A stretch of 64,000 nucleotides of DNA from Dehalococcoidia bacterium (lineage in GTDB: Bacteria > Chloroflexota > Dehalococcoidia > GIF9 > UBA5629), in NCBI GenBank assembly GCA_011170325.1, contig DUEX01000001.1:373-64372 (forward strand), given 5' to 3'. The notes beneath the pieces were generated by a model, which ran no database searches, was not told the origin of the DNA, and worked only from the letters and a program-made list of their open reading frames with translations. The position numbers and the translations under genes were made by a program. This document shows, in pieces, positions 9,383-30,629 of the stretch. Each line of letters begins with the position of its first letter. The first letter of the stretch is position 1.

Positions 9383-10222
9383 ATGTCTGGGTTAATGGCG
9401 GTTTTCTGGAAGGAGCTAGTTGACCACCTTAGCGGCTGGAGGTTCATAATACTGTTTCTATTTATTTATGCCGCTGGGTTATCAGCTTGGTGGATAGCAA
9501 ACCAATATATAAGGAGTGAGGTAACTGAAACTAGCAAGTTCATCTTCCTCAGGCTTTTTGCTGTTTCAGGAGGCGAAATAGGGTCCTTCCTTTTCTTTAT
9601 GTCTATTCTCTTACCTATAGTCGGTATTGTTCTTGGCTTTGATGCCATAAACAGTGAGCGGACGAGCGGTAACCTTAGTCGACTTCTATCACAGCCTGTT
9701 TACCGAGATTCGGTGATTAATGGCAAATTTCTGGCTGGGCTGGTTACTCTATCACTTTTGGTGATGAGCATAGTGGCTATTGTTGCTGGTTTAGGACTGC
9801 GTTCGATTGGTGTACCGCCGACCTCAGAGGAAGTTCTAAGACTTCTGTCTTTTGTCCTTCTAAGCATAATTTACGGCGCTTTCTGGATGTCTCTAGCTAC
9901 CCTTTTCTCAGTTTTTTTCAATCGGATAGCTACCTCAGCTTTGGCTTCGCTGGGCCTGTGGTTTTTTCTTTTCGTTTTCTTTCTTTTCGGCATTGTTAGG
10001 GTTTCGCCTATCTTCCTATATCGAGAGGCGGTCACCATGCTGCTACTGCCCAGGACGATGGCGGGAGTTAGTGTGGTGCCTGTAGATTTAGTTTTTCCTC
10101 TCCCTTTTGGGCAGAGCTTATTGCTCATCTGGCCTCAAATAGTAAGCTTGATTGCCTTAGCCGCTGTATGCTTCGCCGTCTCCTACATTAAGTTTATGCG
10201 TGAAGAAATAAGGCCGACCTGA
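9383..10222 (+). CDS. ABC-2 family transporter permease
   Basis: 279 aa with about six predicted TM helices. Translationally coupled to the upstream ATPase by a 2-nt gap. Confidence 0.7.
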   Translation: MSGLMAVFWKELVDHLSGWRFIILFLFIYAAGLSAWWIANQYIRSEVTETSKFIFLRLFAVSGGEIGSFLFFMSILLPIVGIVLGFDAINSERTSGNLSRLLSQPVYRDSVINGKFLAGLVTLSLLVMSIVAIVAGLGLRSIGVPPTSEEVLRLLSFVLLSIIYGAFWMSLATLFSVFFNRIATSALASLGLWFFLFVFFLFGIVRVSPIFLYREAVTMLLLPRTMAGVSVVPVDLVFPLPFGQSLLLIWPQIVSLIALAAVCFAVSYIKFMREEIRPT

Positions 10223-10459
10223 ACTCCGGCTAATTCTAAATAGATTATAAATAGACATGAATTAGACCAATGGTCCTTTCAAAGGCGAGTCCACAAATGA
10301 AAAATGGCCAGATAGAAGTAGAGGTACCTACACGAGAGAATACTACCGTGTATTCTGCTTTCTGAGTGGCATGTGGTACCAAAAGTCTAATGCTTGTGCT
10401 TATTCCAGCATGACAACGAGAAATGGCAAACTTACTTAATTCATGGCAGGAGGGCAAGG

Positions 10460-11197
10460 ATGAGAATACGCACAATCATCATTATTGGTGAGACAGAGTT
10501 TAAGACGAAGCTGCAGGAACTTTTTTCAAAGGCTGGCTTCAAGGTCATTATGTCTGATTTGAATCAGGATTACGATAAACAAGCCTCGGAGGCCGATCTA
10601 GTCTTGGAGACCGTCTCCGAAGATATTGTTTTAAAGGAGGAGGTTTTCAAAAGATGTGACGCCAAGTGTCCTGAGCAGGCAATCTTAGCAACGACTACTG
10701 CTAAGCCATGGGTTACACAGATAGCAGAAGTGACTAGAAGACCAGAAAAGGTTGTCGGACTTAACTTCACTAAAAACCCGTTTGATGAGAAATACTTAGT
10801 TCAGATAATTAGAGGATTGCAAACCTCTGACGATACCATCCAAGTTTCGAAGGAGCTATTGGAGCAAGTTGGTGTCACTGCTGTAAAAATTGGGGAGACA
10901 CCTGGCTATATTTTGGATAGGGTAATTGCTTCAGTGGTTAATGAGGCTGCTCTCATGTATACAACAAAGCTTGCAACTGTGGAGGATATCGACAAGATGA
11001 TGAAGATCTGCACGAATTGGCCTATGGGCCCCTTCGAATTCGCCGATACTATAGGAGTGGATAAAGTAGTGGAGATTTTGGAATCTCTATCGCAGCAGCT
11101 TGGTCCTCGATACCTACCTTGCTTTCTGCTCAGGAAGATGGTGAATGCTGGTTGGTTGGGGAAGAAAACCAAGAGAGGATTTTATATATATAGCTAA
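10460..11197 (+). CDS. 3-hydroxyacyl-CoA dehydrogenase-like paralog with degenerate NAD-binding and catalytic motifs
   Basis: Collinear with Hbd, including the C-terminal dimerisation domain (GPFEFADTIGVDKVV, KKTKRGFYIY). The GxGxxG Rossmann motif is replaced by IIIIGETEF. The catalytic His of the HFFNP motif is lost (LNFTKNP). Start taken at the internal ATG (MRIRTIII) that follows an AGGAGG-like RBS. Confidence 0.55.
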   Translation: MRIRTIIIIGETEFKTKLQELFSKAGFKVIMSDLNQDYDKQASEADLVLETVSEDIVLKEEVFKRCDAKCPEQAILATTTAKPWVTQIAEVTRRPEKVVGLNFTKNPFDEKYLVQIIRGLQTSDDTIQVSKELLEQVGVTAVKIGETPGYILDRVIASVVNEAALMYTTKLATVEDIDKMMKICTNWPMGPFEFADTIGVDKVVEILESLSQQLGPRYLPCFLLRKMVNAGWLGKKTKRGFYIYS

Positions 11198-11217
11198 AAA
11201 TTTTTTAGGAGACAAAT

Positions 11218-12003
11218 ATGAAATTTGAAAACATTATCTACAGCAAGGAAAAGGGGATAGCCAGAATTATTATAAACAGACCCGAGAAGAGAAATGCCTT
11301 GAATCAAGCAGTAAGGCTGGAATTACAGCAGGTGCTCAGGGACATTGAAGCGGATGATAGCGTTAGAGTGGCTATTGTCACCGGTGCTGGAGATAAGGCC
11401 TTCATAAGCGGTGCCGATATAACAGAACTCAAAGAAATGACCCCAATAGCTTGTGAAGCACGGGCGTCCACCTTAGGTCAACAGCTTTTCACAGATTTAG
11501 AGAACCTTGGAGTTCCAGTTATAGCCATGATAAACGGGTTTTGTCTTGGCGGTGGTTGCGAGTTAGCCATGTGTTGTGATATAAGGATTGCCTCTGAAAA
11601 CGCCAAACTGGGGCAGCCAGAGATTAACATAGGTATCTTCCCCGGAGCTGGTGGGACACAAAGACTACCGCGGCTCGTTGGCTGGGGAAAAGCCAAGGAA
11701 CTGCTATATACCGGCAGAATGATAGATGCTGCCGAAGCGGAGAGAATTGGTTTAGTAGATAAAGTGGTTCCTCAGGATAAATTAGATTCGACTGTAACCG
11801 AGCTAGCGAAAACTATAGTCAGTAAAAGCCCAATAATCATAAAGTTGCTTAAAAGAGTTATTAATACGGGAATGCATACGAATCTTCCTGATGGATTGAG
11901 CTATGAGAAAAGCACTTTCAGTCTCTGCTTTGCTACTGAAGACCACTCTGAGGGAATGGCAGCCTTTCTGGAAAAGCGGGAGCCAGAGTTTAAAGGTAAA
12001 TAG
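11218..12003 (+). CDS. Enoyl-CoA hydratase (crotonase family)
   Basis: 261-aa crotonase fold with the oxyanion-hole region GFCLGGGCELAMCCDIRIA and the C-terminal EGMAAFLEKREPEFKG. Confidence 0.85.
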   Translation: MKFENIIYSKEKGIARIIINRPEKRNALNQAVRLELQQVLRDIEADDSVRVAIVTGAGDKAFISGADITELKEMTPIACEARASTLGQQLFTDLENLGVPVIAMINGFCLGGGCELAMCCDIRIASENAKLGQPEINIGIFPGAGGTQRLPRLVGWGKAKELLYTGRMIDAAEAERIGLVDKVVPQDKLDSTVTELAKTIVSKSPIIIKLLKRVINTGMHTNLPDGLSYEKSTFSLCFATEDHSEGMAAFLEKREPEFKGK

Positions 12004-12029
12004 AAGTCTATAGATTTGGAGGCAGGAAA

Positions 12030-12893
12030 ATGGAAATCAGAAGGATTGGCGTCTTGGGAGCTGGTACCATGGGGCATGGAATTGCCCAGGTTTGCGCTCA
12101 GTCAGGATATCAAGTTAATTTGCAAGATATTAAGGACGAATTTGTGGAGGCAGGGATTAGCAAGATTCAGAAATTCCTCGACGGTAGCGTTGAGCGCAAG
12201 AGGATGACCCAAGATGAAGCGGACCTTACGTCGAGTCGGATTAAAGGTACAACTGATTTAAGAGAAGCAGCCAAGGATGTTGACTTAGTGATCGAAGCCA
12301 TAGTTGAAGACATTAATATAAAGAAGGATGTCTTTAAAGAGCTAGACCAGATATGCCCTGAGGATGCTATATTTGCTTCCAATACCTCAGCTCAATCTAT
12401 CACTGAGATGGCAATGGTGACTAAGCACCCAGACAGGTTCATCGGCATGCATTGGTTCAACCCTCCTCAGCTTATGCGAGGGATAGAAGTCATTGTCACT
12501 GATAAGACCTCACAGGAAACACTGGACACCATGGTAAATCTATGCAAGAAGCTGGGCAAAGAGCCCGGGATATGCAAAGACTCACCGGGATTTATTGTCA
12601 ACAGGCTTCTCCAAATTTGGTACAACGAAAGCCTAAACATGTTCGATGAAGGTGTAGCTGACCCGCAGGACATAGACACCGCCTTAAAGGTGGCTTACAA
12701 TTTCAGGATGGGTCCTTTCGAATTGCGTGACCTGGTAGGTCTTGACGTTGCTTTAGTTGTTAGTGAAACGCACTACCGAGAGTTAATGAGGGAACAATTC
12801 AAACCACCACGATGTCTAGTGATGAAGGTTAAAGCCGGAGACCTGGGAAGGAAAACCGGGCGAGGTTTTTATGAATATGAGTCCAAAACTTAG
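12030..12893 (+). CDS. hbd: 3-hydroxybutyryl-CoA dehydrogenase
   Basis: Intact NAD-binding motif IGVLGAGTMGHGIA, catalytic HWFNPP region, and a C-terminal domain ending KTGRGFYEY. Confidence 0.85.
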   Translation: MEIRRIGVLGAGTMGHGIAQVCAQSGYQVNLQDIKDEFVEAGISKIQKFLDGSVERKRMTQDEADLTSSRIKGTTDLREAAKDVDLVIEAIVEDINIKKDVFKELDQICPEDAIFASNTSAQSITEMAMVTKHPDRFIGMHWFNPPQLMRGIEVIVTDKTSQETLDTMVNLCKKLGKEPGICKDSPGFIVNRLLQIWYNESLNMFDEGVADPQDIDTALKVAYNFRMGPFELRDLVGLDVALVVSETHYRELMREQFKPPRCLVMKVKAGDLGRKTGRGFYEYESKT

Positions 12894-13094
12894 ACTGAAT
12901 GAAGGGTTATCCATCAGCGATATGTTGTCTTTGACAAATTCGAGCATGCTTGAAGCTAGCTATGATGGTTTTGGACACAATCCAGAATGTTGGGCATAAT
13001 AACGAACTTCAGCTGATATTCAAAGAGTAGTCATGGTGCCCAATTTTACGGGTAGGGAATATCTCGCCCATACATAAGGGGGTAGAGAATAGCT

Positions 13095-14750
13095 ATGCCA
13101 AGCAGGAGCAAGCAAGAATGGCAGGAAACTACTTTAGCTTCAACGTTGAAGCGCTTTCCTGAAAGACAGGAAATTTTCGAAACTACTTCAGATATTCAGA
13201 TTGACACAGTCTACACCCCTGATGATTTAGATGGTTTCGACTATAACGCATCCCTGGGTTATCCTGGCGAATACCCATTTACCCGCAGTATCCAACCAAC
13301 AATGTATCGGGGCAGGATATGGACAATGCGACAATACGCTGGCTATGGTACAGCCGAAGAATCCAATCGCCGCTATCGTTACCTCTTGGAACAGGGGCAG
13401 ACCGGCTTAAGTGTTGCTTTCGATTTGCCAACTCAGATAGGTTATGATTCCAATCACCCATTAGCTCAGGGGGAAGTTGGCAAGGTTGGGGTGGCCATAG
13501 ATAGCCTTCAGGACATGGAAATCTTGTTTAAAGATATACCTTTAGACAAGATAAGTACCTCAATGACCATTAATGCCACCGCCTCTATCCTTCTTGCTAT
13601 GTATATTGCTGTAGCCAAGAAACAGGGAGTTGACCCGGCTAAACTAGACGGGACAACACAGAATGATATCCTGAAAGAATATATTGCTCGAGGGACTTAC
13701 ATTTTCCCACCTCGTTCCTCGATGCGCCTGACCGCGGATATTTTCGCCTATTGCAGCCAGTGCCTTCCCCAGTGGAATACTATCAGCATAGGTGGTTATC
13801 ACATTAGAGAGGCTGGTGCCACTGCCGCTCAGGAAATTGCCTTTGCCTTAGCCAATGGCATTGCCTATGTTGAAGCTGCTATCAATGCTGGACTAGAGGT
13901 AGATGCCTTTGCTGGTAGACTTTCGTGGATCTTTCAGACTCATAACAACTTCTTTGAGGAGATTGCCAAGCTTAGGGCAATCCGCAGAATGTGGGCTAGG
14001 ATAATGAAACAGAAATTCAAGGCTAAAGACCCGCGCAGTTGGATGCTCCGTACCCATGTTCAGACTGGGGGGTCAACATTAACAGCCCAGCAACCCATGA
14101 ATAATATGGTCAGAGCTACCATTCAGGCGCTAGCTGCCGTCCTGGGTGGGACGCAATCTCTGGCCGTTTCCTGCTATGATGAAGCCATTTGCCTTCCTAC
14201 AGAGGAGGCAGTACAAATGGCCCTGCGCATCCAGCAGATTCTAGCGTATGAAAACGGCGTTGCTGATGTTGTCGACCCTGTTGGCGGTTCCTACTTTGTA
14301 GAGAATCTTACTGATGCTTTGGAAAGGGAAGCAAATCAGTATATTGCTAAAATCGATAGTCTTGGTGGCGCTGTAGCCGCTATTGAGCAAGGGTTCCAGC
14401 AAAGCGAAATTCAGGAAAGCTCCTACCGCTATCAAAAGGAGGTCGAGGAAGGCAAAAAGACCATAGTCGGTGTTAACAGGTTTATTTCCACATATCCCAA
14501 GATGTCGGGATTACTCCGGGTTGACGCAGAGCAGGAAAGAAAACAGATAGAGCGTCTGGCTCAGGTTAAGAAACACAGAGATAATTCGAAGGTGAGTCAG
14601 ACGCTTAAGAGACTGGACGAGGTAGCCCGTAGCAGCGATAATACCATGCCGGCCTTTATTGGATGTGTAGAGGCTTATGCCACTTTAGGAGAGATATGCG
14701 ATGTGCTTCGCCGTGCCTTCGGTAGCCAAAAGGAATACTTGGTATTTTAA
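13095..14750 (+). CDS. Methylmalonyl-CoA mutase-type acyl-CoA mutase, large catalytic subunit (split type, no B12-binding domain)
   Basis: 551-aa TIM-barrel substrate domain with [30 protein letters not shown], matching the MCM signature and retaining the Tyr of the MCM TMY motif. There is no C-terminal DxHxxG B12 domain. Confidence 0.8.
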
Positions 14751-14811: not shown

Positions 14812-15279
14812 CTAGGTTTTTGCATATCCACCTTCGGGTTTTCTCTTTACAAGGTGGGTTGTCTCCGTTTCAGCGACTGCCTCTTCCTTCTGGTTTTTGC
14901 AAACGCTCCGGTGAACTACGATTCCCCTGTTAGGATTCTTGGTTTCCCTCTTTTCAATCACTTCCCCGTAAACCTTCAGGGTATCCCCGGCTCTTACCGG
15001 GCTTGTTATCCTTACCTTGTCTATCCCAACAAGGGCAACCATAGTTTCCTCATCCCAGAATCCACACTGCTCCTCAAGACCCCCCATGAAGAGGAGGATT
15101 ATCCTTCCCGGGGCAATCCGTGTTCCAAAGGCAGTCTTTTTAGCCTCCTCTTCGTCCCAGAATAAAGGTAAGGTGAAGCCGGCAAGTCCGGCTATTATGT
15201 TTATCGCCCCTTCACCTATAGTCCTGCCCGGTGTTACAAATTCTTCTCCTGCTTCGTAGTCTTCCCAGTATCTGGACAC
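14812..15279 (-). CDS. MaoC-like (R)-specific enoyl-CoA hydratase, hotdog fold
   Basis: 155-aa single hotdog-domain protein with MaoC dehydratase-like sequence features. Confidence 0.65.
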   Translation of the reverse strand: MSRYWEDYEAGEEFVTPGRTIGEGAINIIAGLAGFTLPLFWDEEEAKKTAFGTRIAPGRIILLFMGGLEEQCGFWDEETMVALVGIDKVRITSPVRAGDTLKVYGEVIEKRETKNPNRGIVVHRSVCKNQKEEAVAETETTHLVKRKPEGGYAKT

Positions 15280-15481: not shown

Positions 15482-17050
15482 TCACATCGCCATTAGTTTT
15501 TTCGCTCTTTCACGCTCTTTGAGTTCTCTTCTCTTGATTTTCCCATCCGGAGTTTCGGGGACCTCTTTAACAAACTCTATCTCCTTAGGATACTCGTGCA
15601 TGCTCAACCTCGTCTTAACAAACTCCTGTATGTCCAGTTTTAGCTCTTCGCTTGGCTCACGATTGGCTACAATAAAGGCCTTGACTATCTCCCCGCGCTC
15701 TTTATGAGGACTGCCCACCACTGCAGCCCTCTCAATCGCGGGATGCTTCTCAAGGACACTTTCTATCTCAAAAGGCCCGATTCTGAACCCTGATGATTTT
15801 ATGACATCATCGCTTCTACCTTTAGGCCAAAAGTAGCCGTCCTCATCGAAGTAACCGAAGTCGCCCAGCGGACTCCACCTACCTTTACGCCACACTGCTA
15901 CCTCTCCTATCTCTCCCGGAGGTAACTCTCTCCTATTCTCATCCAAGGCGACCAACCTGGTTCCCAGCATCGGTCTGCCTGCACTACCCAGTTTAGGCTT
16001 ATAATCATCAAATGCATAGTCGATAACGATCGGACCTGCCTCAGTATTGCCATAGTTAGAGTGTATATAGAGGCCGAGTTTATCCAGAAAGTATTGAGTC
16101 ACTTCCCTGTCCATTGCTGAGCCAGTGTAACTTAGGTGCCTGAGTTTGAGGCTGTAATTATCTAACTTGCCACAGTCCATAATCATGCGATAGACCCTGG
16201 GAATAGCAGATACATTTGTGATTTCAAACTCTTCAAGCCCCTCAAGGAAGATCTCGGGGATAAACTTACCGCTATAGGCACCTATACCATTCCCAAATAT
16301 CATCGGGCCTATATTACCATACCAGATCCCATGACCCCACGCTGGAGATGAAGTGCACATGTATTTGTCATCATCACGAAGACCAATCCAGAATTTTGTA
16401 TAAACAGCGGTAACAGAGATAGCCGCATGATTATATAAAACTTGCTTGGGCAAACCCGTGGTGCCGCTGGAGAACTGCATCACAGCAAGGGTATCAGCAG
16501 AGGTACTAGATTTGTAATGCTCGTCTTCGCTTTGAATCAACTCTCGCAACTCCTCAGCAGCGATCAGATGTGACACCAGGTCAGGACTTACCAGGTCTGC
16601 TCTTTCTCTATTTATTATCGCCATTTTGGAATTAGATTCACGAAGTCGATACTCAAGGCCCTCTGGACCAAGAAGGGAATAACAAGGCACCGCTACAGCA
16701 CCCCTCTTTAGTACACCAAAGAAGCTCACGTAATACTCCACTGAGGGATTCAATATCATAGCCACGCGGTCTCCTGCATCTACCCCAAGCCTTTCCAACA
16801 TATTAGCAAATTGAGACGTCAAACGAGAGAGTCCCCCGAAGGTGTAGACTTCTCGCCTTCCATCATCAAATTTTAACCTGATTGCTGTTTTCTCTTCAGA
16901 GTGGCGATCTATGCACTCATAAGTTATGTTCAGATTTTCCTGACTCTCGTCAAACACTTCCCACCTTTCGCTCCATGTGAAACTTTCCTTAGCTTCCTCA
17001 TACGTCTTATATTGCAACTTCATGCTATCCCCCAATGATTTAACGTTCAA
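15482..17050 (-). CDS. AMP-forming acyl-CoA synthetase / ligase
   Basis: 522 aa with AMP-binding motifs (SSGTTGLPKQV, YGNTEAG, GDFGYFDEDGYFWPKGRSDDVIKSSG) and the C-terminal PKTPDGKIKRREL. Confidence 0.8.
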   Translation of the reverse strand: MNVKSLGDSMKLQYKTYEEAKESFTWSERWEVFDESQENLNITYECIDRHSEEKTAIRLKFDDGRREVYTFGGLSRLTSQFANMLERLGVDAGDRVAMILNPSVEYYVSFFGVLKRGAVAVPCYSLLGPEGLEYRLRESNSKMAIINRERADLVSPDLVSHLIAAEELRELIQSEDEHYKSSTSADTLAVMQFSSGTTGLPKQVLYNHAAISVTAVYTKFWIGLRDDDKYMCTSSPAWGHGIWYGNIGPMIFGNGIGAYSGKFIPEIFLEGLEEFEITNVSAIPRVYRMIMDCGKLDNYSLKLRHLSYTGSAMDREVTQYFLDKLGLYIHSNYGNTEAGPIVIDYAFDDYKPKLGSAGRPMLGTRLVALDENRRELPPGEIGEVAVWRKGRWSPLGDFGYFDEDGYFWPKGRSDDVIKSSGFRIGPFEIESVLEKHPAIERAAVVGSPHKERGEIVKAFIVANREPSEELKLDIQEFVKTRLSMHEYPKEIEFVKEVPETPDGKIKRRELKERERAKKLMAM

Positions 17051-17070: not shown

Positions 17071-18300
17071 TTAAAAATAGACCCCTTTACCTGTGCCGCG
17101 AAATTCCTTCTCCGGCAGCCTCTTTTCCACAGGCCAGGTTCCTTTCTCTCTCGATGGAAGAACTACCGTGGAACGACCTGGTATGGTATCCTCTCCTCTT
17201 TGATTTATCCCATGAGTTTCGATATCTACACAATAATCCCCATTCTCACCAACATACTTCTTGATGACTTTACCACGAAACCATACCACATCCGAGTGAT
17301 ACACGAACTGGCGGTATTGAGCATTGCATGATTTTAGCCAACCTTCGTCACCCATCCAGTTAGTAAGCAGATTAACCAACCAGCAATGCCTCTGGACCCC
17401 TACGTCATAAGCATAGCGAGCACCGACGCCTCTGGCGGCTGCAACGGAGTAATGCACTCCATAGACTGGTTCCCAGGCATGACTCACTGGATCATGAAAG
17501 CCCCAGGCAGGATGCTTTTTATATAGGCGAAGCTGAACGCCATGAGCTGCAAGCTGCACTGGAGCTGCTCCAACACAGAAGGCAACTATATCTGTCATCC
17601 CAAGCGGACCCTTCACCACTGGCTTTAGCTCATCATCAACATTCACATCTTCCCAATATCTTACTCTGGAACCACTTATCTCCTCACCTAGCACATCCTC
17701 ATCTACCCTAGCGAGTTCCTCCTCAGTCCAGGGATGAGGCACCTGAATATGGTCATATTTCCCCTCCCCCTCCTCTGACCTACTCCTTGCCACCTGCCTC
17801 TCATACCTCACAAGCAGATTATATCCCCGGCTGACCAGTTCACCCCGCTGATTCCAGTATTCAAACCTTTGATATTCAAAAGCTGTCTTACCAGCGAACT
17901 TACTGGTTTTCACATCATAGCCGACAAAATAGCACTTAGGGATAATTTTGTCGTTAACGTATACTGGCTTGAGGAACTCCCAATCTGAAGCTGAGTGGTC
18001 TGCATGAATTCCCGGCAGCCCTTGCAACACCCAATGTGGGAAAACGCTAGCTGTCCAGGCAGGAGAGGCTACTAGCGCCTCATACCTGGTCTTCCTGGCA
18101 TATTCTTCATCTCGATATAATGGATTTACATCACCTATACCATTGGAGAAATTCCTTATCGCCTCATATGAGACCGTTTGGTTGAAAACACTCCCAACCC
18201 GCAATTCAAGCCCAAGCCTTTTCTGCCAGTCGGTTAACGCATCATTGTCGAGAACACCCTCAGCCACCTGGGCAACCTTTGCCTCCGATTCTTCTGCCAT
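17071..18300 (-). CDS. Double hotdog-fold MaoC-like acyl-CoA hydratase/dehydratase
   Basis: 409 aa. The N-terminal half carries a hydratase-2-like motif (GIGDVNPLYRDEEYA). Two hotdog-like halves, similar in organisation to mesaconyl-CoA / 2-enoyl-CoA hydratases. Confidence 0.55.
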   Translation of the reverse strand: MAEESEAKVAQVAEGVLDNDALTDWQKRLGLELRVGSVFNQTVSYEAIRNFSNGIGDVNPLYRDEEYARKTRYEALVASPAWTASVFPHWVLQGLPGIHADHSASDWEFLKPVYVNDKIIPKCYFVGYDVKTSKFAGKTAFEYQRFEYWNQRGELVSRGYNLLVRYERQVARSRSEEGEGKYDHIQVPHPWTEEELARVDEDVLGEEISGSRVRYWEDVNVDDELKPVVKGPLGMTDIVAFCVGAAPVQLAAHGVQLRLYKKHPAWGFHDPVSHAWEPVYGVHYSVAAARGVGARYAYDVGVQRHCWLVNLLTNWMGDEGWLKSCNAQYRQFVYHSDVVWFRGKVIKKYVGENGDYCVDIETHGINQRGEDTIPGRSTVVLPSREKGTWPVEKRLPEKEFRGTGKGVYF

Positions 18301-18512: not shown

Positions 18513-18860
18513 TTGCTAGAAGGGCCTTAGAATAAGCCGATTGCTCATTTCCATGGATTTTTGCAATGGTCAAACATCGGTTGGCCGTCCAAATTTTACC
18601 GAACTGCTGAGGGCAAAGCAAGGAGAAATAGCACCTCACACTTCTACACCTTTCCTTCAGAAAGATAACTCAGCCACTGTATAACGGCCTTAGTCCTTTT
18701 CCTCTTCAGTTTACTACAAGCCTGACTACCTTTTCCCCATTGCCCCCGGCTTTCGGGATTTGTAACTCGGGTGCAAGGCTTGAACTTTCTAATTTCATTC
18801 AGCATCCTGCTTGACAGCAAACGCCTACTGGCTTATCCTTGTGACAAGAAAGGAGCCCAA

Positions 18861-19658
18861 ATGGAATATTCTACAATCATTCTGGACAAAGCTGAAGGAA
18901 TTGCTACTCTCACCCTCAATCGCCCAGACAAACTTAATGCTCTTGATGAGACAATGGCCGGTGAATTGCTTGATGCATTTACCCGGGTCGAGCAGGACAA
19001 TGATATAAGGGTATTGATTATTACCGGCAACGGTCGTGCCTTTTGTGCCGGAGCTGACATCAAGGATATTTTCCTGAAAAGGATAGAGGAAAGGAAAATC
19101 GGCAAAGAAGGCTATGATATTGCTGGCTGGCTAACTAAAGCTTGTTCGCAGCTTAGAAAAATGACAAGACCAACGATTGCCTCGATAAATGGTCATGCTG
19201 TCGGTGCCGGCATAACACTTCCCCTGGAGTGCGATATAAGAATTGCTTCGGAAGAGGCAAGAATATCATTGCCTTTTCCTCAAGTTGGTGTGACCCCGGA
19301 GTGCGGTTCTACTTACTCCCTGCCACGTCTAGTAGGAATAGCCAAGGCTTGCGAATTAGTCTTTGCTGGCAAGACTATCGGGGCTAAAGAAGCCAAAGAG
19401 ATAGGGCTGGTTAATCAGGTTGTGCCAGCGGCTGAATTAAAGACAGCCACTTATGAATTGGCGAAAACTATAGCTGAAGGAGCGCCTTTAGCTATTCAAA
19501 TGGCTAAGAAGGGGCTTTACCAAGGACTGAATGCAAACCTTGAAGATCAATTACAGTATGAGGAGCAGTCGCTAAACGCCACTCTTGACACTGAAGACCA
19601 TGAAGAGGGGCTAAGAGCCTTCTTAGAGAAAAGGCAACCGGTTTTCAAGGGCAAATAA
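18861..19658 (+). CDS. Enoyl-CoA hydratase (crotonase family)
   Basis: Internal Met after the RBS AAAGGAGCCCAAATG. Protein begins MEYSTIILDKAEGIATLTLNRPDKLNALDE, includes GHAVGAGITLPLECDIRIA and ends EGLRAFLEKRQPVFKG. Confidence 0.8.
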   Translation: MEYSTIILDKAEGIATLTLNRPDKLNALDETMAGELLDAFTRVEQDNDIRVLIITGNGRAFCAGADIKDIFLKRIEERKIGKEGYDIAGWLTKACSQLRKMTRPTIASINGHAVGAGITLPLECDIRIASEEARISLPFPQVGVTPECGSTYSLPRLVGIAKACELVFAGKTIGAKEAKEIGLVNQVVPAAELKTATYELAKTIAEGAPLAIQMAKKGLYQGLNANLEDQLQYEEQSLNATLDTEDHEEGLRAFLEKRQPVFKGK

Positions 19659-19662
19659 TATT

Positions 19663-19704
19663 GCGGGGCTAACTCAGTGGTAGAGTTCCTGCCTTCCAAG
19701 CAGG
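19663..19704 (+). pseudogene. Truncated tRNA-Gly(TCC) 5' fragment (acceptor 5' strand, D arm and anticodon arm only)
   Basis: 42 nt GCGGGGCTAACTCAGTGGTAGAGTTCCTGCCTTCCAAGCAGG matches 40 of the first 42 nt of the intact tRNA-Gly at 34148. No T-arm or acceptor 3' strand follows. Confidence 0.6.
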
Positions 19705-20085
19705 CATTTCCTCACCAAAGCTAGCGGCCACTGATTCAGCTTCAAAATTGGTGCGCCGAGGCAGGCACCAGCCATTTCTCACCCTCGGTTTGCTTTTATT
19801 CATTCTATCTGTTGATGCACTCACTTCTGTCCTCCTGGCTGTGTTTTTGTCCCCTTGAGTCGTTTCCATACCCTCTACTAGTCATTCCAGCTCTTCTACA
19901 ACGGATAAGGTAGCATTAGCTAAAACCGATGTTAATGATCAGCGGTCCGTATGCCAAGTATTATTATGTAAACCAACATTTTTCTTGTTGAAGACCATTG
20001 CAGCCAATGGAATCCAAGGAGCCCATGTCTTAAGCGGCAGCCTAGCCCCTTCTTGAACAACTATCCCAAAATGGAAGCGAGACCT

Positions 20086-20122
20086 GGCCAGCCAAAAGCT
20101 AGCTGCTAGCTTTTGGCTGGCC
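20086..20122. repeat. Perfect 18-bp-stem inverted repeat (GGCCAGCCAAAAGCTAGC t GCTAGCTTTTGGCTGGCC)
   Basis: Read directly from the sequence. Lies about 140 nt upstream of the IS110 transposase start. Confidence 0.6.
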
Positions 20123-20258
20123 GTCGGGGGCAAAACTTCAACCGCCTTTATATCTCTGAGGAAACAATACAGGTATCATGAAAGGGTAATGCACCTCCTG
20201 AGTCTATGGTGTAAAGTCAGGTTTGGAAGAACCCGAATATACCATAAGGAGGTGCTAA

Positions 20259-21334
20259 GTGGAGTATATTGGTTTGGACTGTCACAAGCAATATGACCAC
20301 GCGACAATGATTGACACAGAGACGGGAGAAGTAAAGGCAAAAAGACTAGCACATACCAAGGAGGAATTTAGAGAGTTCATAGGCAAGAGAGCAAACACTA
20401 GGATGGTGTTAGAGTTATGTTGGAATTGGTCCAAGACGTATGAGCTGGCGAAAGACCCTGTGGAGGAAGTGATTCTTGCTCATCCGCTTAAGGTAAAAGC
20501 TATTGTCTCAGCCAAGGTAAAGACTGATGCTATTGATTCTCGAACACTGGCTCAGCTACTAATGGATGATCTTATTCCCCAAGCCCATCTAAGGAAAGCA
20601 GACAACCGGGTAAAACAAAGGGTGATTAGACATAGGGCTTTCATAGTAGCAATGAGGACTCGAATAAAGAACCGAATACATGACCTTGTAAATAATCAGC
20701 CACTGCCACCGGAGATCGTTGAAGCAAAGCCAACGAACCTGTTCCTAAAGAAGAGAAAGAGGGGTACGGAATGGCTTACCTCATTGAAATGGGACAGGGA
20801 AGAGGACAGGAGAATAGTCCAATCAGATTTGAGACTTATAGAGCGTCTTAACCAGGAAATATCAACTAGCAATGAGATGATTGAGGAGATACACGGGAAA
20901 GACAGGGGATGCCCAGCTTCTTTTCACCATCCCCGGAATAAGGATACCCCTGGCTGTTCTCATTAGCACTGAAATAGATGGCATTAGCCGCTTTAGTTCT
21001 CCATCTAAGTTGTGTTCTTATGCTGGTCTTGTACCATCCACCCATTCGTCGGGAGGAAAGACATATCATGGGAAGATCACCTTGGAAAGGGACCGGTGGT
21101 TAAGGTGGGCTTTGGTGGAAGCTGTTGTACCCGCGTCCTACGCTTATATGGAAATAAGAAAAACTGTTGGATGCCCTTAGGAAAATCAAAAATGCAAATG
21201 TAGCTAAGACAATAATGGCTAGTTAGCTGCTTAAAGTGGTGTACCATGTGCTAAAAGAAGGTCGCCCTTATGTGCCAACTGATCCGGCTGAAGTAAGACC
21301 GGGCCGCCCTTCAAAAGCCTTAGCGAGCTCATAG
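20259..21334 (+). mobile_element. IS110-family transposase, disrupted by a +1 frameshift near 20890 and an in-frame TAG near 21222
   Basis: N-terminal DEDD-type domain (YIGLDCHKQYDHATMID). C-terminal domain motifs FTIPGI...ISRFSSPSKLCSYAGLVPSTHSSGGK lie in a second frame. Family-typical C-terminus AKTIMAS*LLKVVYHVLKEGRPY lies beyond a stop. Confidence 0.7.
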
Positions 21335-21716
21335 TAGTGAGTTGCGCTCCTAATACAGGTTAAGGGGTTCCGAATCGGACGTTACAATGTGCATCAAGAT
21401 TGATGGTACGGATAGGAAGCTGCTGTGACTCTAGCTGCACAAAAGAGGCAATTGTCACTCTTATGCTGAGCAGTATCCTAGTGTATAGTTTGGCTAGGGC
21501 TACCGTACTATTGACATTGTATGAAGAAATGTCCTATTGTTCATAACAAAAAAGGGGGTGCTCTTCTTCAGATAGGGTGTTTAAGATTGAGAACATTGCT
21601 GGGGGGGTATAGTTGGTGGTGCACATAGTCGAAAATTGTCGCTGGTGATGAAGTAACAAGCATAGGTAGAAGATAGACTACTACTGCATTAAATCTAATT
21701 TTGTGAGGAGTTACTT

Positions 21717-22952
21717 ATGAAGAAGTATGAGCCATTTATTATGGAAGAAGATCGACTTATGCTACGGACAGTCCGTGACTTCGTTGAGAAGGAGATCATG
21801 CCTGTCCGAAAGCAGCTAGATGATCCGCAACGGGGTCATCATATCTATACGGAGCTAATGGAAGGGTTAGTGCATATAGGGCTACAGAAGCGTGCTTTGC
21901 CAAGAGAGATCGGTGGCCTGGGACAAAGTTCTGCAGTCAGCCAAACCACCACTAGCGAGGAGCTAGCAAGAGGTGACCCTCTTTTTGGTATTATGCCTGG
22001 CATGGCCGCTTGGATTTTTGGCCCAGCGATAGTGAGCCGAAATATGACTGTTCTGGAAAAGTTTGCCGCCCAATTTTGTGAGGACAAACTACATACTGCT
22101 GCTTTATCTCTGACTGAGCCAAGCGGTGGATGTAATATCGCTAGCGCTGAGGAGAGGGGTCGCACAATCCAGACTATCGCCCGCTCGGAGGGTGATGAGT
22201 GGGTCATAAATGGGCACAAACGTTGGACAAGCAACGGAGGGATTGCCGAGATCTACTTGGTGCTTTGCCAGACAGACCATGCTCTGGGAGAGGATGGGAT
22301 AGCCCTGATTTATGTTCCTGCTGGCACTCCTGGGATGTCTTTTGGTAAACCGGAAAACCTGATGGGTTTCAAGGCTGATATAAATCTCGAGGTCTTCTAT
22401 GATGATGTCAGGGTGCCGAAGGCATGGCGAGCCTCAGATGAACCTGGCCGAGATGGCCGGAATGTGCGTCGTATCTCATGTTTTGCTCGGCTTATTTCTG
22501 CTGCATCTCTAACAGGGGTGGCCCAAGGTGTCTTCGATTACGTTGTAGAATATACCGCAAATAGGTTTTTCGGGGGTAAACAAGTTAGGCAGCACACAAT
22601 GCAAGCCGGCATTTTGGCTGATATGGCTATTGATCTGCTGAGTGCTCGGGCTTTTTACTTACAGATTGCATCATGGTTTGACAATCGTGCTGTCTTTGGT
22701 AGCCCTACTGGGGACTTCTTGCTAGGAATGGCAAGCGCCATAAGAATATATGCTGCGGATGCGACTATCAGAAGTTGCAACAAGGCTATGGAGCTCATGG
22801 GAGCCTATGGCTACTCAGAGGATTACCCCATCGCCAAGTATCTGCGGGATTCGAAGATCCTTCAGTTATGGGAAGGAGGTGTTCATCAAACTCGGATAGA
22901 TGTAGCACGCGCATTTTATTCCGTACATGGCCCAGAGCTTGTTATTCCGTAG
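21717..22952 (+). CDS. Acyl-CoA dehydrogenase family protein
   Basis: 411-aa ACAD fold with the C-terminal YPIAKYLRDSKILQLWEGG, where a Glu sits at the MCAD-type base position. Confidence 0.8.
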   Translation: MKKYEPFIMEEDRLMLRTVRDFVEKEIMPVRKQLDDPQRGHHIYTELMEGLVHIGLQKRALPREIGGLGQSSAVSQTTTSEELARGDPLFGIMPGMAAWIFGPAIVSRNMTVLEKFAAQFCEDKLHTAALSLTEPSGGCNIASAEERGRTIQTIARSEGDEWVINGHKRWTSNGGIAEIYLVLCQTDHALGEDGIALIYVPAGTPGMSFGKPENLMGFKADINLEVFYDDVRVPKAWRASDEPGRDGRNVRRISCFARLISAASLTGVAQGVFDYVVEYTANRFFGGKQVRQHTMQAGILADMAIDLLSARAFYLQIASWFDNRAVFGSPTGDFLLGMASAIRIYAADATIRSCNKAMELMGAYGYSEDYPIAKYLRDSKILQLWEGGVHQTRIDVARAFYSVHGPELVIP

Positions 22953-23002
22953 CTTTGGTCATTGCTAGAGATACAATAACAGAATCATAAGGAGCTGAGA
23001 AG

Positions 23003-24163
23003 ATGGAGTTTCAATTGAACGAAGAGCAAGTGATGCTTAAGAGAATGGTGCATGAGGTAGCCGAGAAGGAGTTCCGCCCGAAAGTAACAGAATGGGAGAC
23101 TAAAGCTGAATTCATGCCCCGTGAGTACTTCAAGAAGCTAAGCTCATTAGGGCTTTTAGGATTGTCTGTCCCTGTAGAATACGGAGGACAGGGGCGAACT
23201 GCTTTCGAAGTTATTCTAGCTATTGAAGAGCTAGCACGGGTATCAATTCTATGTGCTTTACCTGTTTTTGAATCTGGTGTGGGACCTGTCAGGGTGATCG
23301 AGCAATTTGGAACCGAAGACCAAAAACGAAAATATATACCTCCCGTATGCCAAGGCGAATCCTGGTGTGCCGTTGGTATGACTGAACCTGAGGCTGGTTC
23401 AGCGCTAACTGATCTCAGCACAAGAGCTGTCCTAAATGGCAATTACTATGTTGTGAACGGCACGAAATGCTTTATTACCGGAGGAGGCGAGGCTGACATT
23501 TACGTGACATATGTGAGACTCAGTGAGCAGAAAGGTGCTAAAGGCATTGGTGGGCTGATCATTGAAAAAGGGGCGGCAGGTTTTTCTTTCGGCAAGCAGG
23601 AGCAGTTTATGGGCTGGCGAGGCGTGCCAAGCTGTGACCTAATCTTCGAAGATTGCCGTGTGCCCAAAGAGAACCTTGTAGTCAGGGAAGGAGATTTCAG
23701 AAGGCTGATGACTGCGTTTGACCTTGAGCGGTGTGGTAATGCAACTATGTGTTTGGGGATAGCCCAAGGAGCCCTTGAACAGGCAATAGACTATTCGCAA
23801 CAAAGGAAGCAGTGGGGCAAAGACATATGTGAGTTTCAAGCAGTCCAGTTCATGTTAGCTGACGCACTTATAAAGGTCGAAGCAGCCCGGCTTTTAATCT
23901 ATAGGGCAACAGTCAATGCTGCCACGGGGTTGCCCTCTCCGCTTGAGGCGAACCTTGCTAAGTGCTTTGCTAATCAAATGGTGAGAGATGTCACCGCGCT
24001 TGTTTTGCAGATACACGGCGGCTACGGTTATTCGAAGGACTATCCTGTAGAGCGCATGTTACGTGATGGCTGGGGTTGGGGGATCGCTGGTGGTAGCATT
24101 GAGATTCAGAAAACCACCATAGCCTCTCAGCTTCTAAATCGCAGATTCGATCAGAGGAAGTAG
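23003..24163 (+). CDS. Acyl-CoA dehydrogenase
   Basis: 386 aa with N-terminal helical, middle beta and C-terminal helical ACAD domains (GMTEPEAGS, CFITGGG, YPVERMLRD). Confidence 0.85.
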   Translation: MEFQLNEEQVMLKRMVHEVAEKEFRPKVTEWETKAEFMPREYFKKLSSLGLLGLSVPVEYGGQGRTAFEVILAIEELARVSILCALPVFESGVGPVRVIEQFGTEDQKRKYIPPVCQGESWCAVGMTEPEAGSALTDLSTRAVLNGNYYVVNGTKCFITGGGEADIYVTYVRLSEQKGAKGIGGLIIEKGAAGFSFGKQEQFMGWRGVPSCDLIFEDCRVPKENLVVREGDFRRLMTAFDLERCGNATMCLGIAQGALEQAIDYSQQRKQWGKDICEFQAVQFMLADALIKVEAARLLIYRATVNAATGLPSPLEANLAKCFANQMVRDVTALVLQIHGGYGYSKDYPVERMLRDGWGWGIAGGSIEIQKTTIASQLLNRRFDQRK

Positions 24164-24775
24164 AGGGCTCGGGAATAAGGTCAGCACCATTCTATTTATG
24201 AAACCTATTTACCAAAAGCTTGCAATTGCGATATAGCTTTCCGCAATTGTACCGTAGACCATTTGGCATGCAATCCATCGTTTCGTTCAATCCGACGACA
24301 TCGAACTTTCCATCTTTTTGTTGCTTTACTTTAAGCCAATTTGTGTCTATATTCCCAACTTCCCAAAGGATATGCGGTATAGTAAATAATCCCAAGAGTT
24401 ACCCAGTAGATTACCAAGCAAAACCATCGAAGCACAAGATGGATGGCTTCTGCCTTTTCCAAACCCTATGTCTCCTGCAATTCCTGAATCGCTTCGGGAT
24501 CAGGATGAGCGTTAGATTCAGCCCAATGCTGCGCATAGATCAGGCTAGGGCCTCGTCTTCCAGTCAGCCACCAACGTCTCCTAATAGTAGCTAACTAATT
24601 TCCTCCTGACTAATCCCATCTATCAATGCTAATTTCGCGTGGAAGTAGGAACAATAACAGCAACCATCTACTGCACTTACAGCCAGCATAAGCCTCTCCT
24701 GGAAAGCTGGTGATAACAACCTCCCTTATTCTTCATTTCCTTCAGTCGTTCCCAACAGTATACTGTTTACGCAGC

Positions 24776-25933
24776 TTAGGCAAAAGCAGAAATTCCCAAC
24801 AAATCGCGGCCCACGATTAACTGCTGCATTTGAGTAGTGCCATCGGGAACAACAGCTACCCGTGCATCCCTAAAATAACGCTCTAATTGGTACTCCTCAG
24901 AAAGTCCGTAAGCCCCTAAAACCTCCATAGCCTCAGAAGTAACTCGCACAGCAACTCGTGGTGCGAACGATTTGGCGAGTGCCACGTTTCTAGCCCTTCC
25001 CTCTTCCTGATCTAGAGACTGAAAGGCTCTGTAGACTAAAAAGCGAGCTGCTTCGACATCAGCCCACATATCGGCCAGCATACCTTGAATCAGCTGAAAC
25101 TGACCAATTACTTTGCCAAACTGACGCCTTTGTTTCGCATAATCGATAGCACTGTCCAAAGCAGCCTGAGCAGCACCCAGGCTATTCATCGAAATACAGC
25201 ATCGAGACAACTCTACTCCAGCCATAAAACGTCTGAAGCCGCTTCCCGGCTCTCCAATGATGTTCTTTCTGTGTACCCAACAGTCCTCAAACGTAAGTTC
25301 GGCATTATCCCAACAGCGCATCCCGATTTTTGGTAGCAGACGCGTAGCAAAAGGAGAGACTTCCTTGTCGATAATGATAAGTGACATACCTCGACTGCCT
25401 TTGCTAGGATCCATAAGTGCTAAAACGATAGCCATTTCAGCTATAAATGCACATGAAATCCAAGTCTTCGTCCCATTGATTACGTAATAATCATTATCTA
25501 GTGCAGCTATGGTTTTACACTCGGCCAAATTTGAGCCAGCTTCAGGCTCAGTCCCGGCCTCGCACCATATTTTGTCACCTGCAAACAAAGCAGCTAAATG
25601 CCATCTTTGGTCTTCGGCACCTGGTGCAGCCAGATAATGAGCACCAGCAATCTGTATTTGTACGATTCCGGCTAAGGAGCCCCATGCTCTGGCTAACTCT
25701 TCGTAAAGTACAGCATACGAAGTCCAATCTAGAGCCATACCACCACACTCCTTAGGAAAGGGCCCGTTTAGATACCCTAAAGGAATGATCGTTTTCAGCA
25801 ATTCATGAGCCGCTTGATTAGGTAGATGGGTCATTTTTTCGTATGTGTTTACAACAGGGATTATTTCTCGTTCCATGAAAGAACGAGCATTCTGCTTGAC
25901 GAGCTTTTGTTCTTCATTTAACTCAAAATCCAT
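24776..25933 (-). CDS. Acyl-CoA dehydrogenase (IVD/LCAD-type catalytic Glu on helix G)
   Basis: 385-aa ACAD fold. NAELTFEDC carries a Glu at the IVD-type base position. The C-terminal motif reads VPDGT. Confidence 0.85.
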   Translation of the reverse strand: MDFELNEEQKLVKQNARSFMEREIIPVVNTYEKMTHLPNQAAHELLKTIIPLGYLNGPFPKECGGMALDWTSYAVLYEELARAWGSLAGIVQIQIAGAHYLAAPGAEDQRWHLAALFAGDKIWCEAGTEPEAGSNLAECKTIAALDNDYYVINGTKTWISCAFIAEMAIVLALMDPSKGSRGMSLIIIDKEVSPFATRLLPKIGMRCWDNAELTFEDCWVHRKNIIGEPGSGFRRFMAGVELSRCCISMNSLGAAQAALDSAIDYAKQRRQFGKVIGQFQLIQGMLADMWADVEAARFLVYRAFQSLDQEEGRARNVALAKSFAPRVAVRVTSEAMEVLGAYGLSEEYQLERYFRDARVAVVPDGTTQMQQLIVGRDLLGISAFA

Positions 25934-26647
25934 TTAAATTTACCCCCAATTTTCATTAGGATGTCGGCTTCAACAATAGAACAATCTATTATACAAAGGA
26001 TATTAGCTTAATGCTATAAGTGTATGTTGTCAGCGAAAATGGGACAATTTGGCCCTCAGAGTTAATGGACACCTCAGAGACCAATGTCCTACTTCCTGGC
26101 GGTTCTATTATGATCCCTTCTTGCTTGTAATGTCCCGTTTTCCGCCGCCTTTACTCAACGAGGCTATTCAATTTTGCCTCGAATTTGAGCTTACATTTGT
26201 TTCGACCTTCCTTGAAAACTTTCATCGCCAATTTAGTCCTCACTTCCAGCTTCATTATTTTGCGAAAACTGTGGGGACTTCAAAGCCGATTCCGACTTTC
26301 TCGATATCTGAAGCATCTGGTCTGCACTTAAGATATTCTACGGCAAAAAGCAACAGATTAGGCTAAACGCTTAATCGATTAAGTTTTGCGGCGGTTTTGT
26401 TGGCTAAGTTACTGCCCCAAAACAGATACAATTCTGGGTAAAAACTGGGGTGTCAACCTGCTAATCAGCTAGCTGCTTGCTTGCTGGCTAAGCAGCTAAG
26501 CAACTGCTTTAAGCAATGGAGCAATCTGATGGTGATACTTGTAACAGGAGCAACAGGATGTCTTGATTCAGGAGTAGTGCCGAGATCAAGTTGAAAGGCA
26601 GTTTATTCTAGCGTAGAATCAAGGCCATGACAGGTTGGAGGGGAGTT

Positions 26648-26767
26648 ATGGACAGAAAGGAAAGGTATGAGCAATTACAGGAGAAGATAATAGAACTTAC
26701 GAGGCAGCCTAAGAGAAAGATAGAGCTGAAAGCGGTAATGGACATAGGAGGAATGATTAAGGCCTAG
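26648..26767 (+). CDS. Hypothetical 39-aa charged, coiled-coil-like peptide
   Basis: ATG preceded by GGAGGGGAG. Encodes MDRKERYEQLQEKIIELTRQPKRKIELKAVMDIGGMIKA. Lies 26 nt upstream of the crotonase gene. Weak evidence only. Confidence 0.2.
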   Translation: MDRKERYEQLQEKIIELTRQPKRKIELKAVMDIGGMIKA

Positions 26768-26792
26768 GAAAAGAGCATAGAGGAGTTGAGCG

Positions 26793-27551
26793 ATGAAATA
26801 TGAAAATCTAATGTATGAAAAAGACGAGGGTATTGCCAAAATAACTATAAACCGTCCTAAGGTGATGAATGCTCTGAGCCCAGCGGTTCTCTCAGAGATC
26901 AAAGCAGCTTTGCAGGAGGCAAGCAAAGATGACGATGTGCGAGTAGTGGTGCTTACTGGAGCAGGCCGTGCCTATTCTGCGGGAGCGGACTTGCTATCAT
27001 TAGAAGACCGTAAGCTGGAGGGAGGAGCCATAGGACCTATACTAGATGATCCAGGTAGAGATGTTATCGATACTATACAGACTATACCCAAGGTTGTGAT
27101 AGCTATGATTAACGGATATTGCCTCACCGGTGCATTGGAAATATCCCTGGCTTGTGATCTCATTATAGCCTCGGAAGAGGCCAAGTTTGGAGATACTCAT
27201 ACCCGCTGGGGGCTTCGGCCCAGCTGGGGAATGAGCCAACGTTTGCCGCGCACTCTCGGACTACTGAAAGCTAAAGAACTATCCTTTACTGCAGAGACCA
27301 TTACAGCACAGGAAGCAGAGCGCATCGGCTTGGTAAATATGACAGTCCCTGCAGAGAAATTGGAGGGGACTGTGCAAGAGCTGGCGAGGAAGATAATGGC
27401 CAATAGTCTCGAAACGATTGCTGCTTATAAATATCTTTACAATCGTGGTATGAGAGATAGCCTGGAAAAGGGCTTAGAACTGGAGTCTAAGAGCAAGTTT
27501 GTGATTACAGATACCGACGAGAGACTAGAAAAGTTCAGGAAGAAGCACTGA
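26793..27551 (+). CDS. Enoyl-CoA hydratase (crotonase family)
   Basis: 252 aa beginning MKYENLMYEKDEGIAKITINRPKVMNAL. Crotonase fold with GYCLTGALEISLACDLIIA. Confidence 0.85.
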   Translation: MKYENLMYEKDEGIAKITINRPKVMNALSPAVLSEIKAALQEASKDDDVRVVVLTGAGRAYSAGADLLSLEDRKLEGGAIGPILDDPGRDVIDTIQTIPKVVIAMINGYCLTGALEISLACDLIIASEEAKFGDTHTRWGLRPSWGMSQRLPRTLGLLKAKELSFTAETITAQEAERIGLVNMTVPAEKLEGTVQELARKIMANSLETIAAYKYLYNRGMRDSLEKGLELESKSKFVITDTDERLEKFRKKH

Positions 27552-28565: not shown

Positions 28566-28640
28566 TTTTGGTTCTTCAGCCACCATTCCATTGCGCAATG
28601 CGATGGATTGTTGGATTTGTGATGCAAATTCCATTCTGGT

Positions 28641-30627: not shown

Positions 30628-30629
30628 AT

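Follow-up and report, generated by a model that had tools for sequence, protein, structure and literature searches.

A free-standing degenerate 3-hydroxyacyl-CoA dehydrogenase homologue encoded with an intact dehydrogenase in Dehalococcoidia: a probable split counterpart of PaaH

In FadB, FadJ, the alpha subunit of the mitochondrial trifunctional protein (TFP-alpha) and the peroxisomal multifunctional enzyme MFE-1, a duplicated C-terminal domain of 3-hydroxyacyl-CoA dehydrogenase (HAD), known as domain E, replaces the second protomer, and an intramolecular pseudo-dimer with a single active site is formed. PaaH has been described as a protein in which two HAD genes appear to be fused, so that a single chain imitates the HAD dimer, and its second Rossmann domain is reduced and without catalytic residues and the NAD cleft (PMC4498308). 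One active plus one dead HAD unit is therefore an architecture already known from PaaH. Here we describe a gene, termed pHbd, in a 64,000-nt stretch of contig DUEX01000001.1 of a Dehalococcoidia bacterium (the whole stretch is called the window below). It encodes a degenerate HAD homologue of 245 residues and is followed on the same strand by a crotonase gene and by an intact 3-hydroxybutyryl-CoA dehydrogenase gene (Hbd), with spacers of 20 and 26 nt. An earlier note, made from the sequence of the window, regarded pHbd as a retained pseudo-enzyme, perhaps a structural or regulatory partner of the crotonase/Hbd pair. Our analysis suggests that pHbd is probably a stand-alone non-catalytic subunit which would form a heterodimer with the Hbd encoded nearby and so amount to a split PaaH.

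Fold, lost motifs and selection in the pHbd family

pHbd was collinear with the Hbd two genes downstream, as the earlier note had described, and BLASTP gave 34% identity over residues 37–244 with an E value of 2e-41. In the Pfam search the C-terminal domain 3HCDH_C was complete (profile positions 1–97 of 97), and 3HCDH_N was matched only at profile positions 63–179 of 180. The AlphaFold2 (AF2) model of pHbd had Hbd structures as its top Foldseek matches, and together with the Pfam result this indicates that the two-domain HAD fold is retained. The best NCBIfam match, NF004474, reached 216.6 bits, far short of its cutoff of 408. All 19 NCBIfam matches to Hbd or HAD models stayed under their own cutoffs, and none of them covered the N-terminal 30–40 residues, approximately. 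The open reading frame (ORF) is intact, starts with ATG and has a good ribosome-binding site, again in agreement with the earlier note. A start at the upstream TTG at 10394 was rejected, as the orthologues begin at the Met equivalent to 10460. A promoter and terminator scan of 10100..13200 gave results no better than those for shuffled sequence.

Alignment with the window Hbd showed changes in the dinucleotide fingerprint and at each of the four residues for catalysis or substrate binding. The GxGxxG dinucleotide fingerprint, GAGTMG in Hbd, reads GETEFK in pHbd (within IIIIGETEF). The catalytic His is replaced by Asn102, with LNFTKNP in place of MHWFNP and a one-residue insertion, and the Glu of the His–Glu dyad is replaced by Gln115. 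The substrate-binding Ser of the NTS motif has become Ala81, and the substrate-binding Asn of the NR motif has become Asp153 (LDRVI against VNRLL). The changes in the fingerprint, the catalytic His and the NR motif had all been read correctly in the earlier note, which did not mention those at the dyad Glu and the NTS Ser. The deletion that it placed after the second beta strand is also present, but is larger than the 30 or so residues then estimated: the gap spans 39 columns, and 36 of the 40 residues at Hbd positions 36–75 are missing. In the AF2 models, pHbd keeps only a short helix (H38-44) between beta-2 and beta-3, whereas the catalytic half of a fused dehydrogenase modelled below has two long helices there. 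With residues essential for catalysis lost in pHbd and in its relatives, pHbd is almost certainly non-catalytic, as far as activity can be judged from sequence.

A homologue search of a collection of 5.8 billion proteins gave 486 matches, and residues were counted in the best 120 clusters. All of these were about 245 residues long and 63–100% identical to pHbd, and the few members with an organism name came from metagenome-assembled genomes (MAGs) of Dehalococcoidia/Chloroflexota. Position 102 was Asn in 116 clusters, Cys in two, Ser in one and Asp in one, and was never His. Gln115 was present in 120/120 and Asp153 in 119/120, and position 81 was divided between Ala (56) and Ser (54). The family form of the dinucleotide-binding loop (P-loop) is G-[ED]-G-E-L-[A/V/K], with acidic residues at the x positions; 67 of the 120 clusters formally fit GxGxxA, and most orthologues, with G-[ED]-G-E-L-A, are less degenerate here than pHbd itself. 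Gly occupied position 12 in 116 clusters, and Thr12 was unique to the window, so degeneration has gone further in the window copy than in the rest of the family. The Asp at the end of beta-2 was retained in 70/120. Loss of NAD(H) binding by pHbd is therefore likely rather than proven. The earlier note had named orthologues with a normal GxGxxG and HFFNP as the observation that would speak for a local sequencing error; none of the 120 clusters has the His, though the GxGxxA count should be kept in mind.

When a profile was made of the more distant short forms, it brought up a far larger superfamily, with lengths of 236–258 residues, including one protein from a Bacteroidota MAG. In this wider set the deletion was practically universal (203 of 229 short forms kept only four of the 40 residues at Hbd positions 36–75), the catalytic His was replaced in 96/109, and Asn had changed to Asp in 78/109. 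The four active-site positions differed among subfamilies (SNED, LLEN, SNQD, SHED and others), and the P-loop differed again in L017–L020 (GRNSL, GRTAL). Variation of this kind is what one would expect once catalysis has been lost.

The coding sequences from 21 species-representative genomes of GTDB were then compared by the Nei–Gojobori method, using pairs with unsaturated synonymous divergence (dS). The ratio of non-synonymous to synonymous change (dN/dS) was 0.07–0.21 for pHbd and 0.05–0.10 for the neighbouring Hbd, and non-synonymous change in pHbd was about 1.7 times that of Hbd. pHbd is under clear purifying selection. Constraint was unevenly distributed over the protein. The mean pairwise identity of the C-terminal domain was 79% in pHbd and 82% in Hbd, while the N-terminal domain reached 57% in pHbd compared with 77% in Hbd. 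The former beta-alpha-beta dinucleotide-binding unit was lowest, with 46% for pHbd residues 1–42 compared with 75% for Hbd residues 1–81.

The dN/dS values, the constant length and substitutions in more than 120 clusters and the strict synteny reported below support the earlier proposal of a retained pseudo-enzyme instead of a decaying gene. A pseudogene or a sequencing or assembly artefact might be suspected from the P-loop of the window copy, where Thr12 stands in place of the usual Gly. We give this explanation hardly any credence, in view of the intact ORF with its good ribosome-binding site, the many similar clusters, the low dN/dS and a gene pairing that is conserved across phyla. Sequencing error or a local frameshift was ruled out, as the orthologues share every feature, and a protein identical to pHbd (P0001) is present in the public collection, possibly from the same contig.

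The substitutions themselves also raise the question of a new function. pHbd might be a neofunctionalised ligand-binding protein or non-redox enzyme, with a cleft formed by Asn102, Gln115 and Asp153 that binds a 3-hydroxy- or 3-oxoacyl-CoA or a structural NAD(H). Alone or within a dimer, it could then act as an isomerase or epimerase, as a substrate-channelling site or as an allosteric sensor for the beta-oxidation/mutase operon. The substituted residues are near-invariant and not drifting, and the changes are isosteric (His to Asn, Glu to Gln, Asn to Asp). The G-[ED]-G-E-L-A loop and the beta-2 Asp are kept in much of the close family, and a methylmalonyl-CoA-mutase-like gene recurs nearby. 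However, the same positions vary in the wider superfamily, the P-loop is different in L017–L020 and reads GETEFK in the window, and the N-terminal domain is the least constrained part of the protein. The deleted helical region contributes CoA-phosphate contacts in Hbd and HAD structures, and we know of no HAD-fold enzyme that works without the His general base. We hold neofunctionalisation to be unlikely, though it is the strongest rival and deserves some weight. A second, non-redox function carried by the Hbd heterodimer, in which a cleft-bound acyl-CoA or NAD(H) would serve the stereochemistry or channelling of 3-hydroxybutyryl-CoA between the B12-type mutase, crotonase and Hbd, or the allosteric regulation of the active protomer, seems improbable to us.

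Conserved partner gene and fused dehydrogenases

The gene neighbourhood of pHbd identified Hbd as the constant partner. A full-length Hbd, 72–83% identical to the window Hbd, was found downstream of pHbd in 20/20 assessable GTDB loci, either directly (spacers of 25–50 nt) or after one crotonase gene. Locus L016, which looked like an exception without Hbd, was dismissed because a run of N, an assembly gap, lies inside the gene. A crotonase gene stood between the two genes in only six of the 20 loci, and a mutase gene was found within 8 kb in six. Seven distant short forms, most of them 35–45% identical to pHbd and including the one from a Bacteroidota MAG, were also looked up. Six of the seven (L023/L024, L025, L026, L027, L028, L030) lie directly upstream of an Hbd of 284–304 residues, with a crotonase gene between in L026, L028 and L030. 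In L029, the seventh, a crotonase follows and the contig ends within it, before any Hbd. The short-form and Hbd ORFs of L023 overlap by 11 nt. The other neighbours (thiolase, acyl-CoA dehydrogenase, HMG-CoA-synthase-like/DUF35 proteins, CoA-transferases and a methylmalonyl-CoA-mutase-type large subunit) vary, which leaves the short form and Hbd together as the invariant unit. Crotonase was rejected as a conserved partner on the GTDB count, and the earlier idea of a structural or regulatory partner of the crotonase/Hbd pair is thus upheld for Hbd, with crotonase as an optional member.

One MAG (CAVSBU01; L010 and L007) carries two pHbd/Hbd pairs on different contigs. The short gene of L010 (7992..8726) has in-frame stops at codons 1 and 3, counted from the expected start, and its longest ORF is 212 residues. 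The gene may have become a pseudogene recently, may start elsewhere or may be misassembled.

Fused proteins gave a second line of evidence on the partner. An exhaustive search of representatives placed 77 proteins of about 490–680 residues among the 150 best matches, each with two HAD-like stretches, and most of the tandem proteins that were split consisted of a canonical Hbd unit and a weaker, degenerate unit. In fusions of about 520–560 residues the degenerate unit forms the C-terminal half, and the helical segment lost from pHbd is missing there too. The degenerate halves matched pHbd better than the window Hbd, often over the full length, as expected of homologues of a second HAD repeat. 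The half from P0122 scored 153 bits against pHbd and 104 bits against Hbd, and the corresponding scores were 133 and 107 bits for P0129, 127 and 95 bits for P0128, and 117 and 83 bits for P0135. Three of the five fusions tested passed the curated cutoff of NF006124 (PRK08268, PaaH-like, 507 residues). When the 120-member short-form alignment was compared with a 57-member alignment of P0122-type fusions in hhalign, the pHbd family aligned end to end with P0122 residues 303–546 (probability 100%, E 6e-54). Longer proteins of 640–680 residues with an extra crotonase part (e.g., P0190) had only a duplicated C-domain.

These fusions also bear on whether pHbd could instead be a scaffold or adaptor for crotonase, thiolase and mutase, acting as a pHbd homodimer or through its reduced Rossmann domain as a docking surface, and not as a protomer of Hbd. 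pHbd does occur in operons with crotonase, thiolase, acyl-CoA dehydrogenase and mutase genes, and its reduced N-terminal domain is retained (57% identity), unlike that of FadB domain E. On the other side, Hbd is the only invariant neighbour, with crotonase and mutase each near in a minority of the GTDB loci, and in the sequences examined the short degenerate halves are fused to Hbd halves and to no other enzyme. When the Paa enzymes, including PaaH, were co-expressed, PaaF–PaaG was the only stable complex (PMC4498308). We consider a scaffold role quite unlikely.

An AF2 model of fusion P0122, made from the 57-member alignment, reached a pLDDT (predicted local distance difference test) of 95.3 and a predicted template-modelling score (pTM) of 0.93. 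Its best PDB match was E. coli PaaH (3MOG) over the whole chain, with a template-modelling (TM) score of 0.90 normalised to 3MOG and a root-mean-square deviation of 3.6 Å, and FadB-type chains (1wdk, 6ysv, 5omo) were also among the whole-chain matches. In the isolated pHbd model the N-domain was confident and the C-domain poor (pLDDT blocks of 47–86), whereas the equivalent of the C-domain in the fusion model had a pLDDT above 93. This result is consistent with a domain that needs a partner. pHbd residues 134–226 were 35% identical to the C-terminus of PaaH, and pHbd combines a reduced Rossmann domain devoid of catalytic residues with an intact dimerisation domain, as the second repeat of PaaH does. 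The covalent fusion C-terminal to a catalytic repeat is absent; pHbd is a separate ORF upstream of Hbd.

A bootstrapped neighbour-joining tree of 202 shared columns placed the stand-alone short forms in one clade (80%), the PaaH-type second halves including that of E. coli PaaH in another (76%) and the partner Hbds in a third (100%). Tandem HADs of about 570–600 residues (P0121, P0123, P0124, P0132, P0133), apparently actinobacterial, have two canonical halves or a partly degenerate N-half with a long insertion. They fall apart from the short forms in the tree, which suggests independent duplication and degeneration.

Taken together, these results point to pHbd being, most likely, what the inactive second half is in PaaH-type dehydrogenases, but encoded by a gene of its own, and the structural partner proposed earlier would most likely be the second protomer of a pseudo-homodimer. 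pHbd keeps the HAD fold and an intact C-terminal dimerisation domain beside a reduced and relaxed Rossmann domain, and would be co-transcribed with the full-length Hbd just downstream. The two proteins would pair through their C-terminal domains, as in HAD homodimers, PaaH and FadB/MFE-1 (where only the C-domain is duplicated), and the only active site of the heterodimer would lie in the Hbd protomer. Such pairing might bring stability, help oligomers to assemble or provide the Rossmann remnant as a docking surface.

Several points weigh against a heterodimer with Hbd. We infer heterodimerisation from synteny, fusions and analogy, and packing of a pseudo-dimer through the C-domains was seen only for the P0122 model compared with 3MOG. 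Canonical Hbds homodimerise, and there is no sign here of a partner Hbd that prefers pHbd. The order in the window, pHbd and then Hbd, is the reverse of that in P0122 and PaaH-type fusions. The short forms and the fusion second halves are sisters in the tree with a bootstrap of only 38%; they may share descent or may have degenerated convergently, and the two-gene form may be a fission product of a fusion or its precursor. The replacement residues Asn, Gln and Asp are themselves strongly conserved, and with GxGxxA and the beta-2 Asp in the family some ligand, even NAD(H) or a CoA ester, may bind in the cleft.

Feature coordinates and surroundings in the window

Table 1. Features of the pHbd locus, in window coordinates
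Feature	Position	Strand	Basis or remark
Ribosome-binding site AGGAGG	10448..10453	+	6 nt before the pHbd ATG; read from sequence
pHbd, degenerate 3-hydroxyacyl-CoA dehydrogenase homologue, 245 aa	10460..11197	+	BLASTP, Pfam, NCBIfam, family, dN/dS
Degenerate dinucleotide-binding loop GETEFK, residues 10–15	10487..10504	+	Alignment; GAGTMG in Hbd
Site of ~39-residue deletion, residues 39/40	10574..10579	+	Helical segment between beta-2 and beta-3 of the Rossmann domain removed
Ala81 at the substrate-binding Ser position	10700..10702	+	Alignment
LNFTKNP for MHWFNP, residues 101–107	10760..10780	+	Alignment; Asn102 at the His position
Gln115 at the dyad Glu position	10802..10804	+	Alignment
Asp153 at the NR-motif Asn position	10916..10918	+	Alignment
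C-terminal (dimerisation) domain, residues 147–245	10898..11194	+	Full 3HCDH_C; most invariant columns fall here
Crotonase (short-chain enoyl-CoA hydratase), between the two Hbd-like genes	11218..12003	+	Pfam, NCBIfam
Bona fide Hbd, 287 aa, every motif intact; inferred partner protomer	12030..12893	+	BLASTP, Pfam, NCBIfam

A methylmalonyl-CoA-mutase-type large subunit of 551 residues (13095..14750, +) is encoded 200 nt downstream of Hbd. It matched TIGR00641 with 769.8 bits, which is below the equivalog cutoff for methylmalonyl-CoA mutase, and it is without a B12-binding domain. A partial B12-binding protein from L023, used as a tblastn query against the window, revealed no B12-binding small subunit. 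Orthologues of this mutase, 81–87% identical, recur near pHbd/Hbd pairs elsewhere, and in L023 a separate B12-binding gene follows. The substrate may be isobutyryl-CoA, 2-hydroxyisobutyryl-CoA or another acyl-CoA. In several related loci about 2.3 kb lie between Hbd and mutase, compared with the 200 nt of the window; in L002 (10427..12781) this interval encodes a 373-residue protein and a P-loop GTPase (GAGKTT), possibly a MeaB/HypB-like chaperone. No thiolase was found in the 64-kb window by tblastn with one thiolase from L030, and the HMG-CoA-synthase-like/DUF35 protein of related loci was not found in the window either.

Farther downstream, the window encodes a small MaoC hydratase (14812..15279), an acyl-CoA synthetase (15482..17050) and, beside the latter, a 408-residue double hot-dog protein (17071..18300, −; FAS1_DH_region and MaoC) with no NCBIfam match at E ≤ 1e-10. 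A dense beta-oxidation-type gene set occupies 18771..29399 and is interrupted by a fragment of an IS110-family transposase (20259..20966). It contains further crotonases (18771..19658, 26793..27551), acyl-CoA dehydrogenases (21717..22952, 23003..24163, 24776..25933) and a short-chain dehydrogenase/reductase (SDR; 28641..29399). A MoxR-like AAA ATPase and a VWA (CoxE-like) protein (29767..31799, +) form a common chaperone-type pair and are unrelated to pHbd.

Significance and comparison with described dehydrogenases

Where source annotations of pHbd-family proteins are given, they read '3-hydroxybutyryl-CoA dehydrogenase'. An almost certainly inactive enzyme is therefore counted when the metabolism of Dehalococcoidia and other uncultured anaerobes is reconstructed. 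We searched the open-access literature for a free-standing dead Hbd subunit, HAD pseudoenzymes and a heterodimeric Hbd and found none; the PaaH review was the only relevant source. Such free-standing dead subunits occur widely, are conserved across phyla and carry enzyme annotations. If our interpretation is true, Hbd is predicted to form an obligate heterodimer that is asymmetric and has one active site. Two genes, fusions of about 540 residues, PaaH with its smaller remnant and domain E of FadB/MFE-1 would form a natural split/fused series, useful for asking why HADs need a second C-domain yet no second active site. Two small soluble proteins also offer a simple system for the role of the retained Rossmann remnant and for pseudo-dimer evolution. 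Knowledge of beta-oxidation is not overturned.

Canonical homodimeric Hbd and HAD enzymes (6AA8/6ACQ from C. acetobutylicum, 4KUE from C. butyricum and 1F0Y, human HADH) have the same fold and are the best matches of pHbd by itself, in sequence as well as in fold. Compared with them, pHbd lacks GxGxxG, the Ser, His, Glu and Asn residues and the helical segment after beta-2, and it falls below all curated Hbd cutoffs. The human point mutants S137A, E170Q and N208S are known from crystal structures (1LSO, 1IL0, 1M75), which were among the structural matches of pHbd. pHbd has the equivalents of the first two (Ser to Ala, Glu to Gln), Asp at the N208 position and, in addition, Asn for His. The actinobacterial tandem HADs of about 570–600 residues (P0124, P0132, P0133) resemble the pHbd/Hbd pair in having one half with a much lower score and with some of its catalytic residues gone. 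Their weak half is N-terminal, however, with the long insertion and often the P-loop still in place. It branches apart from pHbd in the tree, so their degeneration was probably independent.

FadB-type proteins have wholly lost the Rossmann part of their second unit, and domain E is fused to crotonase, whereas pHbd is free-standing with a folded, conserved remnant. An inactive paralogous subunit encoded beside an active one is found in BbsCD, the SDR-type 2-[hydroxy(phenyl)methyl]succinyl-CoA dehydrogenase, where BbsC is the inactive partner in a hetero-oligomer; its fold is different and the likeness is one of analogy only.

PaaH (3MOG; PRK08268/NF006124, TIGR02279; ~500–550 residues) is alike in pairing a catalytic HAD unit with a dead, HAD-derived unit that has kept its dimerisation domain. 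It differs from the system described here in four respects. pHbd is a separate upstream gene, sometimes with a crotonase gene before Hbd. Its Rossmann remnant is about 146 residues, compared with about 80 in E. coli PaaH. Its context is butyryl- or short-chain acyl-CoA metabolism with a B12-type mutase and not a paa operon. Finally, the two units are joined in one chain in PaaH, whereas pHbd would associate with Hbd as a separate chain.

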